Origin: Macrostomum lignano
Taxonomy: Eukaryota
Assembly (NCBI GenBank): GCA_002269645.1
Contig: NIVC01000352.1
Span: forward strand, 557,794 to 621,793
Length of the DNA: 64,000 bases
Direction: 5' to 3'
The position numbers and the translations under genes were made by a program. The notes under the pieces were generated by a model that worked only from the letters and a program-made list of their open reading frames with translations, was not told where the DNA came from and made no database searches. This document shows, piece after piece, positions 54,618 to 64,000 of this stretch (position 1 is its first letter; each line of letters begins with the position of its first letter).

Positions 54618-55646
54618 ATGTCAAAAAATTCGGTTTACCTGGTTCTAGCAGCAACTCTGGCGGCGATATGCGCCGTTTCTGATGCGACGCAACTCTGCTT
54701 AGATATGCAGACCGCAATCCAGGCCGAGGCCGCTAACGTTGTTATCTGCGGGTTTCCAAGGTCGTCTTATAGCACCGGCGGCATTGAGACAGCAAGAATA
54801 CCAGTTGCCTGTCATCGAAAAGCTACAGGCATCGCCAGCCTACTTCAAGCTGAGGCCGGCTACCAAAATATTCAGGATTCTATGGATATTTGTTTCATGA
54901 GCTTGAAGCCTAATGATGAGGGCATTACGATTTTTAACATTGACCTGGTCGAAGACAATTATGGTGATGCTTTTAAAAAGCGAGAAATTTGTCTGCAGGA
55001 CTCGGTTGCGGAGATTGTCGGAATCTCGTCGGGCTTTGCGATCAAAGGCCCAATCAGCAGCATCAACCCGGCCGTGTTTGCTGACACTGGATCGCCGCAA
55101 AGGGCTCAGCTTAAGAACCTGTACCTGGCCTTTACCGAACTGCAGACTCTAGATTTGTCTCTGTTGAAGCCATTGAATCTGCAAGAGCTTTTTCTCGTCA
55201 ATAATTCTAAACTGACTCGGATTGTTAACTACAAAGACGCTCCAATGTCCGATTTGACAACTTTCATCTCGTGGAATAATAACCCGTCGCTGATTGACTG
55301 TCGCAATCTGCTTGGTCTGCCTAGTACTATAACAAAAATCGGCATTCTGCAGAAAGGCCTAAATAATAGTTGCGCCCAGTGCCATCTGCCGAAAAAATGC
55401 GAGCTGCTGGTCAGAATGAATGAGCCAGAGTTGAAATATTTTCCTGGCTTAGGTTCGCAATCGCAAAATTTTCCTTTTCCTATGGAACATATGAAATTTC
55501 GTCCAGCGACCTTCCTTCCTGAATTTGTGCCCTACAAGTCGTACAATATTGCTCCAGAAACCACAAAAGCAGCCACCTGTCAGACGGAATGCAGTTGTCA
55601 AAAGTGGCCTCCGCCAGGTAAGAAGCTAAATGATTCAATAGACTAA
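54618..55646 (+). CDS. Intronless putative secreted, Cys-containing protein with degenerate leucine-rich repeats, 342 aa
   Basis: Non-repetitive 1029 nt ORF. The N-terminus MSKNSVYLVLAATLAAICAVSDA looks like a signal peptide. LKNLYLAFTELQTLDLSLLKPLNLQELFLVNNSKLTRI fits the LxxLxLxxN pattern. The ORF-track start at 54492 is probably an upstream extension. Confidence 0.7.
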   Translation: MSKNSVYLVLAATLAAICAVSDATQLCLDMQTAIQAEAANVVICGFPRSSYSTGGIETARIPVACHRKATGIASLLQAEAGYQNIQDSMDICFMSLKPNDEGITIFNIDLVEDNYGDAFKKREICLQDSVAEIVGISSGFAIKGPISSINPAVFADTGSPQRAQLKNLYLAFTELQTLDLSLLKPLNLQELFLVNNSKLTRIVNYKDAPMSDLTTFISWNNNPSLIDCRNLLGLPSTITKIGILQKGLNNSCAQCHLPKKCELLVRMNEPELKYFPGLGSQSQNFPFPMEHMKFRPATFLPEFVPYKSYNIAPETTKAATCQTECSCQKWPPPGKKLNDSID

Positions 55647-55871
55647 ACTTTTGCTTATTCAAATGTTTTTTGAGTGGCTGGCGTGTGTCAAAGTCAAACT
55701 TTTGAAAAGTTCTTGGAAGTCGATTTTGACGTTAGATACACAATTTTGGCATAGCTGTAGTTCGTGTCGTTCAGATTGGTGCCCCGACGTTCAAAGTGCC
55801 TCAAATAATTTGAGGGGTGCCACTGTGAGGATTTCATAGTCTCTGGCGCTCTCTAAACGTTACTGGCTAGA

Positions 55872-55982
55872 TGGTTGCCAGTTAGGGAGGTTGCCAGTTA
55901 GGGGGTTTCCAGTTAGGGAGGTTGCCAGTTGGGAAGGTTGCCAGTTGGGAAGGTTGCCAGTTGGGAAGGTTGCCAGTTGGAA
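55872..55982. repeat. 16 bp minisatellite (GGTTGCCAGTTAGGGA/GGTTGCCAGTTGGGAA)
   Basis: About 7 tandem copies. Confidence 0.9.
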
Positions 55983-56379
55983 AGATTCATCCCGACGGCA
56001 GTCTCATTCCGACGGCGCTTTTTGCGCCAGCAAGTTTAGCGGCAGAGGATCAGCATATTAGAAGATCAAAGTGCGCAGAAGCCGAGCGTGGAAATGTCAG
56101 GTTAAGCACTTCCTAGACTTTAAGACAAAATAATTTTTAGTCTACATCTTCGCCATTTCTTTTATTTTCGGATAGCGAAATACGAGTAGTTTACAACAGA
56201 CTTTTAGAGGATCACACGGGTGCGTCTGACTTCGTCTGGTTTGTCTTAACTCGCATTTCAAGAATTGCGTTCAGCTCGATTTTTAAGACTTGATTTCGAA
56301 TTAGCTCGTACAACGCGCTTGTCTATCCGAATCTTTGAAAGCTTTCATACTTTCTCGAAAGGTCACTTTCATGAATTTA

Positions 56380-56503: not shown

Positions 56504-56734
56504 TATAATCTTAACTTTGAAACCTCGTTATTTGTCAAACCCACATTAGAAATGCTTTCGTTTTCCGTCATACTTTCAAAATTTTTAATGATAGTGATTA
56601 AAATTGGGACTGCGATGATTGACTGCCAGTGACAATTGACTCTCAGTGATAATTGGCTATCAGTGACAATTGACTGCTAGTGACAATAGTAGAAGGCATG
56701 AGGGGGCTTTTGGGACAAAATTTTTCACATCCTC

Positions 56735-56943
56735 CATAATCCCATTAAATCCATCCATATTATCCCTGACAGAATCAGAAAAAAAGGGGGGTCGCACCTG
56801 CTCACAAAACCTCCTCCATAATCCCATTAAATCCATCCATATTATCCCTGACAGAATCATGAAAAAGGGGAGGGGCCGCACTTGCTCCGAAAACTTCGAA
56901 CATAATCCCATTAAATCCATCCATATTATCCCTGACAGAATCA
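56735..56943. repeat. Three identical 43 bp direct repeats with an 82-84 bp period, probably subterminal repeats of the Polinton
   Basis: CATAATCCCATTAAATCCATCCATATTATCCCTGACAGAATCA at 56735, 56817 and 56901; the intervening sequences resemble each other. Confidence 0.85.
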
Positions 56944-57159
56944 GAGCAGGTGTCCACTGATACCTGTTATGCTCACTGTGGACACCTGTTATGCTCACTG
57001 ACACTGACATAATCCACTATCATCCACCAGAAACAATCAGAAAATAATCTGTATTCTTCTCCCCACATTCAATTTGCAACACGAAACCAGATCCCTAAGA
57101 CTTTAAATTATCAGCGCAGGGTCCTTACCCTTTGAAAAAAAATTAAATTCTCAATAAAA

Positions 57160-57402
57160 ATGTTTCCAGTTGTCTCTCCAGGTTCTTATTATACTCAGCC
57201 TAATCCATTGTACAAATCCAAGTACCGATGCAAACTTGAATGCAGCGAGTACATGAGAAAATATTGGCCTGACGTTGATATCAATGTCCCTAATATTAAT
57301 CAAGCTCTCCAAAGACACTGGTTTCATAAGTATGGAGTAACCTACGTAAAAGATTACGACAGCTACTATAACTTTGCAGAAATCATTAGGCAGTTGCGTT
57401 AA
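57160..57402 (+). CDS. Small uncharacterised ORF (80 aa, Tyr-rich), possibly belonging to the Polinton
   Basis: Non-repetitive ATG-to-TAA ORF with an AT-rich upstream region like the other viral genes; no recognised motif. Confidence 0.4.
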   Translation: MFPVVSPGSYYTQPNPLYKSKYRCKLECSEYMRKYWPDVDINVPNINQALQRHWFHKYGVTYVKDYDSYYNFAEIIRQLR

Positions 57403-57414
57403 AAAACCGAAAAA

Positions 57415-57525
57415 CCAAAAGGCCAAAAGGCCAAAAGGCCAAAAAGGCCAAAAGGCCAAAAGGCCAAAAAGGCCAAAAGGCCAAAAGGCCAAAAAGGCCA
57501 AAAGGCCAAAAGGCCAAAAGGCCGA
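57415..57525. repeat. 8/9 bp repeat (AAGGCCAAA[A]) followed by inverted copies
   Basis: The array is followed by TTTTGGCCTT and TCTGGCCTT within 70 bp. Confidence 0.9.
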
Positions 57526-57614
57526 AATCGTTTTCATTTTGGCCTTGCGCGAGGCCGAAATCGTTTGCATTCTGGCCTTCCCTCGAGACGGAATTCTTCC
57601 TCGGCTGGGCTCAG

Positions 57615-58139
57615 TTAAAGTGAAAATCTCTCTCCCCCCACGCGCGCTCTCTCTACCCCCATATCTTTCAAAAGTCTTCCCAATTCATTGTTAGGAGCGC
57701 ACAAAATAAACCCCGCTCCTGAGCCTCCGCCCTCTCTCCTCGTGCACCAGCCCTCTCTCCCTGTGCACCCGCCCTCGCCTTCAACCCCCAACCCCAACTT
57801 TGTTTTACCAAAAATAACAGCTTTAACTAATTTCCGAGCAATAGACTCGCGAAATCCGCTTGAAATCCCCATATTGTCGAGTCTCCTGAGCATTTCTTTG
57901 TCCCAGCGATTCTTCTCCTCAGGAAAATCTCTATACTTAACGTCGTGCCACATGCAGACAGAGTCTAGCTCATTCACAGGCTCATGCCCAGGATTTGGGT
58001 TGTTGTTTCCATCCAGCTGTATTTCAAGAGGATTCAAAGGCCCGCAATATTTTTAGCCGGGAAGTGTCCAGCCTTTGTTTGGATGAGGAAGCTTTTCTAT
58101 CAGTCCATGTGAATCTATTTTACCACCAGAGCGTTGCAT
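57615..58139 (-). pseudogene. Parvovirus VP1u-type phospholipase A2 (Polinton/adintovirus PLA2) with one in-frame stop
   Basis: From ATG 58139: MQRSGGKIDSHGLIEKLPHPNKGWTLPG*KYCGPLNPL...EPVNELDSVCMWHDVKY...WDKEML...KLVKAVIFGKTKLGLG. The Ca-loop YCGP and the catalytic HD and D residues are present. TAA at 58055-58053 sits where Tyr is expected (LPGYKY). Confidence 0.85.
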
Positions 58140-58169
58140 TATTTTATTTAAAATATTCTTTTTAAATAA

Positions 58170-59206
58170 ATGACAGATCAGAAACTTAAAAAACTCTACT
58201 ACAGCGACAAAGGATTCTTTGTAGGCAAAAATGCCGTTAGTAAACTCATGGAGCTGAGTGAGGAGCCAAAAGCTACAGTAGAAAAATGGCTCTCTAAGCA
58301 GGCTGTCTTTCAAGTCTATTTCCCACCAGTAAAATTTGAAAGGCCCCATTTCAGTATTTATAAACCTAATGAGGCGCACCAAGCAGATCTTCTGTTTCTC
58401 CCAATGACTCGGGCTACAAGTATGCTCTCACAGTAATAGACATTGCTTCCAGATATAAGGAAGCTCGCCCACTCAAGACGAAGAAGTCAGAGGTTGTTGC
58501 CAGCGCACTGCAAGATATTTATAAAAACTCTCCGCTCACATACCCCCAAATCTTTATGACCGACCCGGGTAAGGAATTCATGGGTGTAGTGAAATCCCTT
58601 ATGGAAAAGAAAAACACAGAGATTCGCTATGGCAGAACAAACTTGCACAGAGACCAGGCTTTTGTGGAAAGATTCAATCTAACTCTAGCCAAGAGGCTAT
58701 TCACTAAGCAGACAGCTGAAGAGCTGAAACTAAAAAGTGGTCAGTACTATACCAAGTGGACAGACCGGCTCCCCACTGTTATAGAGCAACTGAACAATGA
58801 AGTCACACGCATGACTGGATTGAAACCATCCCATGCAATTAAACAAGACACTGTCGAACTTAAGGCATCTCATAGAACAGACAACAACACGACAACCCCA
58901 CACAACACACACAACACAAAACACACCTCGAACTACCCTAAGCTTCCAGGAGTTGAATCACCATACATACTGACAAACTCTGAGTTTCTACGCTTTTTAT
59001 ATCTACCTGGAGAGCTAGAGAAGGACACCAAAAGAAGAGCTACAGATCCATACTTCAGCCTTGATGTACATAAAATAGACAGACATTTTACCTCCGACTC
59101 CGGTGACTATTACTTTTTATCTCAGGCCTTTAACCCTAAATCCCCCATGCGGTCATTCACTAGAGCTGAACTCCTAGTGATACCAGCTGATACAGAAATT
59201 AATTAA
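58170..59206 (+). pseudogene. Retroviral-like (rve, DDE) integrase of Polinton type, one frameshift near 58403
   Basis: KPNEAHQADLLFLP / NDSGYKYALTVIDIASRYKEARPL...TDPGKEF...QAFVERFNLTLAKRLF. ORFs 58170..58436 and 58556..59206 join with a single-base shift. Confidence 0.92.
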
Positions 59207-59222
59207 AATATTAAAATAAAAA

Positions 59223-59581
59223 ATGGCAAAGATTGAAACCAGAACCATCAATAAACTCAATAAAATCATTGAATCAAAGAAACCAGGTATTATATCAATT
59301 AAAGGTGCCAAAGTAAAAATCGATCCCACGCAGCAAATAGTTCAGTGTAATGAACAAAGACACAGCATCACAGATGAAAAGTCAGGAGGAATCCTACCAT
59401 TAGCAGCTCTTATTCCGATCATTGCAGGCGCTGTAAGTGCCGCAGGTGGTGTAGCTGGAGGTGTAGCAACTGCTGTTAAAGCTGGAATGATAGAGCCCAC
59501 CAGCTGGAATTGCAAAAGATTGCAAGAGACAAAGGTATAACAATTAAGGCAGGAGAGGGCTGCCCTGATTTGATGATGTGA
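59223..59581 (+). CDS. Adenovirus core protein X (pX/mu)-like virion protein; probable frameshift near 59486
   Basis: KSGG|ILPLAALIPIIAGAVSAAGGVAGGVATAV resembles the adenovirus pX C-terminus (MRGG|ILPLLIPLIAAAIGA, recalled) and includes an xxGG maturation-protease site. The shifted frame continues NDRAHQLELQKIARDKG. Confidence 0.72.
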
Positions 59582-59797
59582 TGATTGTGAGCATGAAAAT
59601 TCTGTAAGCAAGTCTGACATTGTCAAAGCATCATGACACTGCACAATGCTGGGTTTACAATAATGCGCATGTGATGAGGTTTAAAACCCCACTTTATCCA
59701 GCTTCATAAACCTAACGCTACTGATAGGATGTAGAAACAGTTCAACTTTTCTATCAGGGTGGTCACCCTCAAAATTTTTTTTATTTTAGAGAAAAAA

Positions 59798-62700
59798 ATG
59801 CCAAAAGCAATCCAGCAAAAGATTTAGTCAACAAACATTTTTCAAAAGGCGTCTCATTTCAAGACAAAAGTAATTACTAAGAGAAGCATGCAAACAAAAG
59901 TTTAACACCGACCCTGGTCACCTGGGAAGCTATGAAAAACAGTTGGAAATCATCAATCAATTAGAATCCAACCAGTATGCGCCTATACAAAATCCTGCAA
60001 AGGAACACCAAGAGAGGAGTCGCAACTTAGTTAACAAATACGAAACTCTCACTGGTGAAAAAGCAAAGTACCCACAAAATAAGCAGGAACAAGAGAAATT
60101 AGAGCAATTAATCCATTTAAAAGAGTCGGAGCTTGCCATTGAAGAGATTAATTTTGCACAGAGGAAGTTTACAGAACATTACATAGAGTACACAATCCCA
60201 ATTAACGGCACCAACGGTACCACCGCAAACATCTACGACTATAAAGACAGCATCCAATCAGTTGTTGATCACACACTCAAAACACGCAAGACTTTAAACT
60301 ACAGATATCATTCAAGATTGCGTTTTATATGCCTGCAAAACCCACTGAGCATCTCGAGTATTACATGACAACAAAGGCAAAGCCATTCACCCCTACAGAC
60401 ACACTGGATCCTTTCCTTCAAGATGTCACTAAGAAAATTGAAGCGTTTACATCCAGAGGTTCCGGATGGGTCGTGGAGGGATTCAAAGAGCGACTGTCAT
60501 GGTCATGAAATATGACCCACTTAAAGCCTCCTCTTATATAGAGCTCCCGCATAAGCTAGCCGGCAAAAAAGCTTGCATAAATGTTAAAAATAAAGACAAT
60601 TGCTGTGCTCTATGGGCAGTTCTTTCTGCACTTTATTAGTGTACCTCACCACCCCGAAAGAACCTCAAATTATCAAAATTATTTCAACTACTATCTCATC
60701 GAATGCGAAAAGAAGGGAATCAGGTTTGACAAAGGAGGCTTGGCGATCTCTCAGATCCCAAAGCTAGAAGAAGTGTTTAATAACAAAATTAGAATCACAG
60801 TCTTTGAGTGGAGTGAAAAAACTGAGAAAGTTCAACCGGTCAGATGTAGCAAAGACGTTTTAGATCCTGAGGGGAAAAGGCGGACTGAAGTGGATCTTCT
60901 AGTGATTGGTAATTTACTAGAGGAGGCTCACTATGTTTGGATTAAAGATCTTTCAAGACTCATTCACAAGCAGTTGAATAATCATCACGAGGCTGTTGCC
61001 ATCTGCCGCTTGTGCCTTAAGCATTACAGTGGACCTGAACGCTTTGAAAAACTAACAGAGCATGAATTATCATGTGACGATCACCCCACTAACTGCTCTC
61101 TTCCTTCAGCTGAAGAGAAGTATCTCCGGTTTAAGAACTATCACAAGATGGAGAAGCTCCCATTTGTTGTATATGCTGATTTCGAATGCTCAATCATGCC
61201 AGAAACTCAAAAACAAACTCAAACTCAAAAACATATCCCCAATTCAGTAGCATATGCCTTTATTAATACAAAAGGACTTGTTGAGTATAATTATTTCTTT
61301 GGAGAGCAGTGTGTGGAGCAGTTTATTGCCAGAATGTTAGAGTTGCAAAGAGTAATTAGCACCCTTCAACCTGTTCCAATAATGATGACTGAGGAGGATG
61401 AAAGCAATTTCCTATCAGCAACTCATTGCCACATCTGCAGGAAACAGTTAACTTGCACTGATTTAAAAAACCCCACCGTTAGGGACCACTGCCACTTTAC
61501 TGGGAAATTTAGAGGTGCAGCGCATAACACCTGTAATCTAAAGCTAAAATCGAACATTCATGATCTAACGATATTTTGTCACAACGCAAAGAACTATGAC
61601 ATGCATTTAATAGTTGAAAAAATCGGCATGATTCCAGACATACACCTTGATTGCATCGCAGAGAACAAGGAGAAGTTTAAGTGTGTTGATATTAAACAGG
61701 ATAATTCGGGTAAAGGTAATTCGGTACAGGTAAAATAAGACTGAAGGATTCATATCAATTTCTAGCTGCCAGTCTAGACGAACTAAGCAAGAATCTAAAA
61801 GATGAACAATGTACATATACAAAGATGTTTGCAAGTAAAATTAACAACAGTGATGAATCATTTAAACTTTTAAGAAAAAGGCTTCTACCCCTATGAAAAT
61901 ATTACTGGGTATCACGTATTTGAAGAGGTTTACCACCACAGGAAAGTTCTTTTCAAAGCTAACAGACTCTGGAATCTCTGACAAAGACTATGAGCACGCG
62001 AAGCATGTCTATAATTACTTTAATTGTCAAAACTTCTTCCAGTATCACCTGCTTTACCTCTACACAGATGTGTTTCTGCTGGCCGATGTGTTTGAAACCT
62101 TCAGATACACCTGGTACACAGCATATGGCCTCGATCCAGCACATTATGTGTCTCTGCCTGCCACTAGCTGGGAATCTTTGCTTAAAATGAAATGGGATCA
62201 AGATCCAGATTGGTACATTGAACTTCTTACAGACATTGACATGTACAATTTTGTCGAATCGTCAAACGAGGGGGATCTCAATTTGCGTTAACAGGTATGC
62301 AAAAGCAAACAATCCCTACATTGAATCTTACAATAAGGAGCAGCCCTCAAACTACATTACTTACTTGGACGCTAATAATCTCTACGGGTGGGCGATGAGT
62401 CAAGATCTTCCAGTTAGAGATTTTCGATGGCTACCCTCATCAGAATTCAAACGGACTTTTCATTGGCTGCCATTTATGAGGTTGATGTTTACATTCCACC
62501 AGAGCTTCACGACTATTTCTCTGACTTTCCACCCTTCCCAGAGAACATCAAGTGCCCGAAAATAATCGAAACTCCCAATGATAATAATGGAACTTGGCAC
62601 CTGTCAGGAACAGAAAAAGAACATACAGAGAAACTAACACAGAATCTAAACAACAAGACACGTTACAAAATCCATTACAAACTGCTTCAGTATTTTATCT

Positions 62701-63647
62701 CACTTGGTTGCAGGGTCACCAAAGTTCACAGGGCTCTTACATTTACAGAGGAAGCGTGGATGAAACCCTACATTGATAAGAACACCCAGTTTAGGACCAA
62801 AGCAACCAACGACTTTGACAAGAACCTCTTTAAGTTGGCCAACAACTCTGTCTATGGCAAGACTCTTGAGAATGAGCGGAAAAGAACAAACCTGAAACTT
62901 GTTACCTCATCAGAGCCTGCTGTTATTCAGGCAAATATGTCAAAGCCAACATTCAAAGAACTCCATATCTTTAATAGCTACTTAGGTGTGATCATATTTT
63001 ACAAAACCAAGGTGACGCTGCGCAAGCCGATCTATACAGGTGTCACTGTTCTCGACGAATCAAAACGTCTGATGTACCAGTTCTTCTATGGCATGAAGCA
63101 GCAGTACAAGGATAAAATGAAACTCTTGTACACTGACACAGACAGTTTTATTATGGACATTCAAACAGAAGACATTTATCAGGACATGCTGCAGCAAAAA
63201 GATTTGTTTGACTTGTCTGAGTATGATGAATCTTGCAGGACACAGAATGGCGATCAAGTGTTTGACGCCACTAACAAGAAAGTGATTGGGAAAATGAAGG
63301 ACGAGATTGCTGGTGACATAATCACTGAATTCATTGGGTTGAGAGCAAAGTCCTATTTTGTAAAATGTGAGTCGTCAGACCCAATTAAAAAATCAAAGGG
63401 AATTCCGAAACGTGTGGTTAGGAAGGAAATTAATGAAGCTGAATACAGAGACGCCTTGAATTGCAACAAAAAGACATCACATGAGTTCTCAAAGCTACAA
63501 TCTAAAAACCATATTATTCACACAATTCAGCAAAAGAAGATTGGACTGTCAGGTGCAGATAACAAGAGATTCATTTTTGATGACAATATCAACAGTCTGC
63601 CGTTCGGGCACTGGAGATTAGGTTTAGGAGGTGGAGATTGGGTTTAG
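59798..63647 (+). pseudogene. Protein-primed family B DNA polymerase (pPolB) with an endonuclease VII-like zinc domain, multiple frameshifts
   Basis: ExoI YADFEC, ExoII CHNAKNYDMHL, ExoIII YTDVFLLADVF, PolA YLDANNLYGWAM, PolB KLANNSVYGK, PolC YTDTDS. The insert reads HCHIC...VRDHCHFTGKFRGAAHNTCNL, and SRGSGW...PLKASSYIELP lies upstream. Spread over ORFs 59943, 60581, 61893, 62218 and 62427. Confidence 0.95.
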
Positions 63648-63765
63648 GAGGTGGAGGTTAGGTTCGGGCACTGGATATGGATAGGAGGAGGTTAGATTCG
63701 GGCATTGGAGTTAGGAGTTAAGATTAGGTTTAGTTAAGAGAAAGTTTAATAAACCTCATAAAAAA

Positions 63766-64000
63766 ATGACGACAAATAACTTTCTTGAAGATTTGGCTAA
63801 CGAACTGGAAATCCCAAACTTTAGAGGAATATTTATGAGGGACACTCTGCCTGATTTTCCTCTAAGAAAGGAATGCGGCATCATGAACTTTGACACACGA
63901 TAAACCAGGATCTCATTGGGTTTGCTGGTGATTGATCCGATCGCAAGCACAAGTGTTATTACTTCGATAGCTATGCGGACGGCAGTACCAGAAGAGCTAA
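63766..64000 (+). pseudogene. Adenain-like cysteine protease (Polinton PRO), N-terminal part, frameshifted and cut by the window end
   Basis: MTTNNFLEDLANELEIPNFRGIFMRDTLP...KECGIMNFD / DKPGSHWVCW / KCYYFDSY, containing the catalytic His and Asp motifs. Confidence 0.85.

Follow-up and report, generated by a model that had tools for sequence, protein, structure and literature searches.

Exchange of helix-turn-helix gene and palindrome cassettes in a Polinton/Maverick family of the flatworm Macrostomum lignano

Polintons (Mavericks) and the proposed Adintoviridae carry genes for a protein-primed DNA polymerase B (pPolB), an rve integrase (INT), adenain, an A32/FtsK ATPase and a double jelly-roll capsid protein, and in the available parts of PMC8502044 and PMC8097293 a gene set including capsid, phospholipase A2 (PLA2) and pX genes is standard in animals. 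The left half of such an element, almost certainly a Polinton/Maverick transposon of Macrostomum lignano, occupies the end of the 64,000-nucleotide stretch of contig NIVC01000352.1 analysed here (the window). The window copy is an ordinary, damaged member of a young family. The accessory slot beside its left terminal inverted repeat (TIR) is empty and the unusual feature of the family is therefore invisible in the window. Elsewhere in the genome the family swaps, at this place, cassettes composed of a helix-turn-helix (HTH) gene and palindromes, and each protein likely binds its own palindromes and so tags its own genome, a reading to which we give a probability of roughly 0.6. The anatomy and gene set of the element are known biology; the family-wide swapping of cassettes and the co-variation of protein and palindrome are what the analysis adds.

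As far as the available text of these papers goes, the family has the genes listed above and resembles Polintons/Mavericks in the AG-type ends of its TIRs, a 6-bp target-site duplication (TSD), a length of 15-16.5 kb, the presence of PLA2 and pX-like genes and accessory regions beside the core. Unlike in the adintoviruses of PMC8502044, as described in that part of the text, pX has a gene of its own, apart from PLA2. PLA2 is given there for Alpha virion modules, whereas the PolB of the window family looks Beta-like, and the end motif is AGTAGA instead of the (AGT)2 given for Polintons/Mavericks. An HTH-plus-palindrome cassette is not met for Polintons in the available portions of PMC8502044 and PMC8097293, nor in those of PMC11131425 and bioRxiv 10.1101/2023.08.22.554363, the supplements of which may list such open reading frames (ORFs). 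A literature search, with supplements, subscription papers and Repbase outside its scope, returned no account of the window family from Macrostomum and none of Polintons with HTH-palindrome cassettes. The closest described arrangement is that of nematode Mavericks, in which, according to the accessible part of bioRxiv 10.1101/2022.07.12.499685, 2-5 kb that separate the left TIR from the integrase are poorly conserved and differ among similar elements. The window family likewise has a variable stretch at this place, with modular exchange. The nematode cargo consists of intron-bearing proteases and kinases thought to be host-derived, whereas that of the window family comprises one family of HTH genes, diversified and each a single ORF, whose palindromes are specific to the type, in addition to RING and orphan cassettes. 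Mosaicism is general in viruses of this kind, as stated in the part of bioRxiv 10.64898/2026.10.13.758929 that was available.

The slot was compared among 89 element ends, 39 of which are left ends with PLA2 (the window included, one site counted twice). An ORF with a predicted HTH fold is present in the slot of 22 of the 39. These ORFs have 200-300 codons, some of them are broken, and they have a common C-terminal domain. At a 70% cut they fall into 13 HTH types, most of which are 10-45% identical to one another. The remaining slots contain a fragment (1), a RING-finger-type cassette (4) or one of two orphan cassettes (6), or are empty (6, the window among them). The identity of the PLA2/INT core barely follows the slot type, being 94.2% for the same type (27 pairs) and 92.8% for different types (501 pairs), with a poorly resolved core tree; in one pair of copies the cores are 99.7% identical and the slots differ. 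The HTH gene points toward the TIR at 10 ends and away from it at 12. Right ends, patchwork loci and other families of Polintons yield further HTH types. The idea that the cassettes are nested transposons was rejected: their boundaries vary, and at the junctions inspected no TIR or TSD of their own was noticed. The RING-finger ORF, together with a small membrane-anchored ORF, is an alternative slot cassette with at least two diverged versions (L016:5671-6231, L055, L109, L019, L027). Patchwork loci (L083-L092; contigs C1391, C273 and C1113) combine 3-5 different types of HTH cassette with pieces of several Polinton families in a space of 10-50 kb, and could be silencing clusters or cassette reservoirs.

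Enough DNA was available for 20 types, and in 12 of them a dyad is repeated 2-9 times within 1.3 kb after the stop codon of the HTH gene, against one time at most in the controls (30 shuffles and 5 stretches of core genes). The palindromes are 14-18 bp long, often lie within 47-140-bp repeats directly behind the gene (the repeats of 47 bp and 119 bp, for instance, are directly 3' of it), and track the 3' end of the gene in both of its orientations. They are type-specific: TCTAACGCGTTAGA in H1, CCAACGCGTTGG in H6, TTCCAACGCGTTGGAA in H10, TTCTGGA..TCCAGAA in H11, H12, H15 and H18, TCCTGA..TCAGGA in H9, TTCCTG..CAGGAA in H4, ACGAA..TTCGT in H8 and H14, TATTGG..CCAATA within 47-48-bp repeats in H3, and TGAAACC..GGTTTCA in H7. 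Half-site similarity is correlated with protein identity among 18 types, with representatives picked after the sequences had been inspected (Mantel rho 0.42, p 0.0001, 10,000 permutations). For the 144 type pairs with less than 45% protein identity rho is 0.34, and it is 0.006 for an in-gene control; there is little other DNA similarity between types. These data suggest that each predicted HTH protein probably binds the palindromes behind its own gene. In front of the gene, 6 of the 13 HTH types have arrays of TTCTAGAA, which we take to be akin to heat-shock elements.

The HTH fold of the slot protein is well supported by structure prediction. The domain model (predicted local distance difference test score, pLDDT, 96.5) has a long helix, an HTH and a small helical bundle. 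Among its top 10 matches in VIA-align, 7 are ParB-family domains (KorB, SopB, Spo0J, ParB, VirB), with Z of 5.1-6.2, root-mean-square deviation (rmsd) of 2.9-7.6, 74-94 aligned residues and sequence identity of 9-18%. With a 225-residue model DeoR is first (Z 8.1, 55 residues), and P1 ParB (Z 7.4, 86 residues, rmsd 5.0) and KorB (Z 7.0, 80 residues, rmsd 3.6) are within about 1 of it; ParB-family chains align over 73-86 residues versus about 50 for most plain HTHs. The likeness to ParB predicted in this way is a lead. Residues 1-110, which the fold search barely covered, are modelled as almost entirely helix, and some slot proteins end in acidic tails. The HTH ORFs of the slot are under purifying selection, the nonsynonymous diversity (pN) being far below the synonymous (pS) in all 11 pairs tested.

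Weak HTH matches to Pfam occur in a few of the 22 slot proteins, and searches of Pfam, PDB sequences and the Atlas gave no family name. Word-based homologue searches returned the Macrostomum protein only, or nothing. Searched against 1.84 billion representatives, a profile matched 398 clusters with E<=0.001; among the matches listed, 5 clusters are close to Macrostomum types, and 28 of 30 clusters looked up have no informative name. For two homologues the genomic context was sought and none was found in viral contigs; metagenome contigs gave nothing for one homologue and, for another, one true locus of the three returned.

Gene and sites stay together while the promoter and the carrier element change. 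All of the 12 best H1 loci are in the slot of the window family, as are 6 of the 12 best H4 loci. The other H4 loci agree with the cassette of the window family (86-97%) over a stretch that begins 17 bp ahead of the start codon and reaches the first palindromes; the promoter in front is a different one, and two of these loci have, at a distance of 4-5 kb, a pPolB that is 25-37% identical to that of the window family. For a second cassette, the copy at a locus with the TIR of the window family and the one in another Polinton family agree at 91.5% over 1233 bp.

A mechanism that would account for the cassettes starts from the known Polinton model, in which the element would replicate by pPolB from its TIRs and integrate by rve with 6-bp TSDs, packaging being possible. 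The slot protein would bind its own palindrome array as a dimer, as the palindromic form of the sites suggests. Palindrome repeats directly behind a gene have a parallel in sopB-sopC, and the cassette might act as SopB does at sopC: free linear genomes would be marked, to be retained, segregated or recruited to replication or packaging. By analogy with such systems a partition- or tethering-like role is possible, at somewhat less than even odds. Differing specificities would avoid cross-talk with the many co-resident copies in the nucleus, as in plasmid incompatibility groups, and heat-shock-type promoters would switch on several types under stress. The existence of empty copies means that a copy could insert without the cassette, perhaps with help in trans. 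The likeness to ParB, SopB, KorB and VirB with their parS, sopC or operator palindromes lies in a predicted HTH followed by a helical bundle and in related proteins having related sites. The differences are the predicted long helices of the N-terminal half and the eukaryotic element, and for the cassettes cognate binding is a prediction. Swappable protein-site units, or marks of an episome, occur also in the immunity regions of phages (repressor and operators), in herpesvirus EBNA1/FR and in the baculovirus hr arrays. No sequence or fold link between these and the cassettes is shown, and the sites of the cassettes are not over divergent promoters. In its widest form the proposal is a plasmid-style specificity system in animal Polintons, with a widespread ParB-like HTH family, centromere-like arrays, cassettes swapped within and between families and, often, heat-shock control. 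Such a system would sort co-resident elements into incompatibility or immunity groups and imply a regulated episomal stage; in this full extent it is doubtful.

Several observations weigh against the binding of own palindromes and the likeness to ParB. Seventeen of the 39 left ends have no profile-passing HTH gene, the 6 empty ones included, 8 of the 20 types show just one dyad, and H2 has no downstream palindrome. H1 and H13 have a common palindrome core at 16% protein identity. The late choice of representatives weakens the Mantel test, and common ancestry of a gene and the adjacent DNA can give such a correlation without any binding. The cross-family loci could be rearranged nests. For the one homologue outside Macrostomum with DNA, no palindrome was found in 536 bp downstream. 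On the side of the fold, the longer model matches plain HTH repressors (DeoR, SorC) as well as or better than ParB domains, the Z values are of a size that the tool describes as common among helical domains, and a Foldseek search of PDB and BFVD returned no match at E<=0.001 for the slot protein. Neither a ParB CTPase domain nor a ParA partner is evident; Pfam gave no match in 9 slot proteins or 40 homologues.

The same cassettes might instead be transcriptional switches, in which the HTH protein on its own array would repress or activate the element and the types would be immunity groups, like the repressor-operator regions of temperate phages. The fold searches are consistent with this, since ParB domains share their ranks with HTH repressors and sigma-4 domains and the top matches KorB and VirB are regulators according to their entry titles. 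The heat-shock-element-like arrays in front of some types, the acidic tails and the diversification, which fits escape from resident repressors, point the same way. The arrays, however, lie 3' of the gene, in a tail-to-tail arrangement with PLA2 or on the side of the TIR, and not over a promoter; their position relative to the core promoters varies with the orientation of the gene, and promoters are exchanged independently of gene and sites. We regard a switch as the main rival, but as unlikely. It is still less probable, and very unlikely, that the cassettes are hitch-hikers, spread as DNA adjacent to palindrome arrays that act as hot spots of recombination or template switching, for which protein binding would be unnecessary. 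Cassette boundaries do vary and cut into the TIR, arrays exist without genes, capsid modules and TIR lengths are mosaic too, and several types lie in patchwork loci. Hitch-hiking leaves unexplained, however, why type-specific palindromes track protein relatedness while the flanks diverge and why the HTH fold is under purifying selection. Binding of own palindromes by the swapped HTH proteins is the reading that we prefer.

In the preliminary description of the window the interest lay elsewhere, in a virion-forming lineage, as yet uncharacterised, with PLA2, pX and adenain as its marks, which we consider unlikely to be the point of this locus. A full set of virion genes is present in the family, its capsid genes are under purifying selection, and the frame of the major capsid protein (MCP) is open at 26 of 40 ends; to this extent the genes agree with the virion-forming part of the claim, and virions may be formed. 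The insertion in the window is itself damaged, with lesions common to two assemblies. As a claim of novelty it is answered by the literature, in that such genes are the published norm for animal Polintons and adintoviruses in the available text of PMC8502044 and PMC8097293.

The right half of the element, which the end of the contig at 64000 cuts off, is present in a second assembly of the same insertion (contig G000:C4117), found with a pattern of the right end plus its 6-bp flank and with a left-flank pattern. Across 10 kb, 2.9 kb of them host flank, it is 99.4% identical to the window, the differences being 30 small gaps and 22 mismatches. The complete element has 14,928 bp, TIRs of 960 and 978 bp that are 98% alike, and a perfect 6-bp TSD. 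Its right half contains the protease, the A32 ATPase, the double jelly-roll MCP and a gene in the penton position. Features that the preliminary description had sought beyond the contig end (right TIR, TSD, ATPase and MCP, with a second capsid gene assigned by position) are thus found in one insertion, which is therefore a complete capsid-encoding Polinton and not a chimera. The slot is empty and no HTH match was obtained in this assembly either, whereas sister copies have up to about 3.4 kb inserted there. All five gene frames in the window (PLA2, INT, pX, pPolB with several breaks, and the protease, PRO) are interrupted. The reading that all these breaks are true decay was rejected, since the breaks differ between the two assemblies: each has breaks absent from the other, and many in the window are therefore likely long-read errors. 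The INT break near 58400 is absent from the second assembly. The PLA2 stop and the two 5' breaks of pPolB near 60290 and 60470 are common to both and are likely real lesions. Contigs of 4 sequencing runs cover the window stretch.

Table 1. Features of the element copy at the end of the window (window positions).
Feature	Position	Strand	Remarks
Left copy of the 6-bp TSD	56682..56687	.	Same hexamer after the right TIR in the second assembly of the insertion
Left TIR, about 960 bp	56688..57648	+	Element starts exactly at 56688; first letters AGTAGAAG; 98% to right end of same insertion
Three 81-82-bp repeats in TIR	56727-56945		
80-codon ORF within TIR	57160..57402	+	Without Pfam family; kept at both ends of many copies
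Inner TIR variant, 8-bp GGCCAAAA repeats and GGCC dyad units	57410..57648	.	Abuts PLA2 3' end; accessory slot empty
Parvovirus-type phospholipase A2-like gene (PLA2)	57615..58139	-	PF08398, E 2e-8; premature stop near 58054
rve integrase (INT)	58170..59206	+	PF00665; single frame break in window
Stand-alone pX-like core protein gene	59223..59673	+	PF05829, E 3e-7; frame breaks near 59480, 59620
pPolB, Beta-like, in pieces	59798..63647	+	Endonuclease VII-like insert
Adenain-type cysteine protease (PRO)	63766..64000	+	Cut by contig end; stop near 63902

The order and strands of the five genes (Table 1), as first described, were borne out by six-frame translation and Pfam. The PLA2 ORF matches PF08398 only and pX is a separate gene, so that there is no fused PLA2X of the adintovirus kind (PLA2 with a pX domain at its C-terminus). 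The INT piece in the window matches PF00665 at E 5e-6, below the cut-off, and INT of a sister copy at 7e-9, above it. The match of the pPolB to PF03175 is weak (27.8 bits in a sister copy, cut-off 25.8) and absent from its C-terminal 400 aa; by this weak match the protein fits the description of the Beta class. Its C-terminal part is 38-52% identical to the best 120 of 1095 matches, some of which are annotated as DNA polymerases. Cys/His motifs at its N-terminus were read by eye as a putative vOTU domain, PMC8502044 giving an OTU-like domain at this place for adintoviruses; a vOTU domain and the terminal protein concept for pPolB are found in the available part of bioRxiv 10.1101/2024.03.18.585575. 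The window PRO is 71% identical to the protease of a sister copy, which matches PF00770 (E 1.6e-4, above the cut-off). The ORF inside the TIR encodes a conserved Tyr/Cys-rich 80-aa protein without a family match and is hence present twice per element. The 81-82-bp repeats near the TIR end vary between elements (L109 and L021 among them) from 2-3 to at least 11 copies. In the host flank, 1 kb outside the TIR, a 342-aa single-frame ORF (54618-55646, + strand), also present in C4117, has a signal-peptide-like start and a leucine-rich-repeat-like stretch and no significant Pfam match. Host DNA left of the element (3800-33500 and 55870-55990) contains many long tandem arrays with units of 12, 15, 16, 21, 26 and 30 bp.

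The genome contains about 160 or more copies of the family, some of which are duplicate assemblies of one site. The flatworm host proposed at the outset is borne out by a family protein identical to a record named Macrostomum lignano. The exact 30-nt TIR end occurs 324 times, and its reversed control 0 times. The 3' part of pPolB gave 323 candidates, and the 40 scored are 99-100% identical, a value biased upward as these are the best ones. Among the first 100 ends listed, 20 TIR pairs were taken; the 6-bp TSD is perfect in 14 of them and has a one-base mismatch in 2. Open frames among the genes spanned are frequent for PLA2 (37/38) and the minor capsid protein (36/43) and amount to 18/34 for INT. 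The minor capsid candidate is a conserved 287-aa ORF behind the MCP, assigned by position, with no match in Pfam or PDB sequences. For Beta virion modules PMC8502044 gives GasderminX or Cupiennin; the ORF considered in this connection, hydrophobic, conserved and 249 aa long, is without a significant match in Pfam. No fusogen was seen among the ORFs examined. The protease (PF00770) and the ATPase (PF04665) are above the cut-off in a sister copy. The MCP of sister copies matches PF21738 at E 6e-9, above the cut-off, for one capsid type and at 6e-5, below it, for the other. The second type makes up 7 of 41 MCP genes and is 78-80% identical to the first at the nucleotide level, with nonsynonymous divergence (dN) of 0.10 and synonymous divergence (dS) of 1.4 between the types. 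It occurs in an element with a 99% identical pPolB, and its presence on the same replication module (L023, L031, L037, L044, L015, L130, L142) represents a swap of capsid modules within the family.

Deleted derivatives with both TIRs were also seen (L093 on C105, L094 on C544, L095 on C33, L117/L118 on C276): some of 3.6-3.8 kb with capsid genes only, one of 8.7 kb without pPolB and the protease, and one of 11 kb with capsid genes at both ends. In other copies (L049/L050 on C869, L103, L113) the TIR is lengthened to 1618 bp by a part of the minor capsid gene copied to the left end. Just inside the TIR of one copy is a tyrosine-recombinase-like ORF with a weak QRICH1 match (L043:936-1991), presumably a nested Crypton-type element.

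With no fewer than 18 natural protein-site pairs in one laboratory animal, the way in which integrated animal Polintons control a viral or free stage becomes accessible to in vitro tests that use oligonucleotides and small proteins. Should the pairs prove cognate, they would parallel, in a eukaryote, the incompatibility modules of plasmids or the immunity modules of phages, and would provide a ready series for the study of the evolution of HTH specificity.

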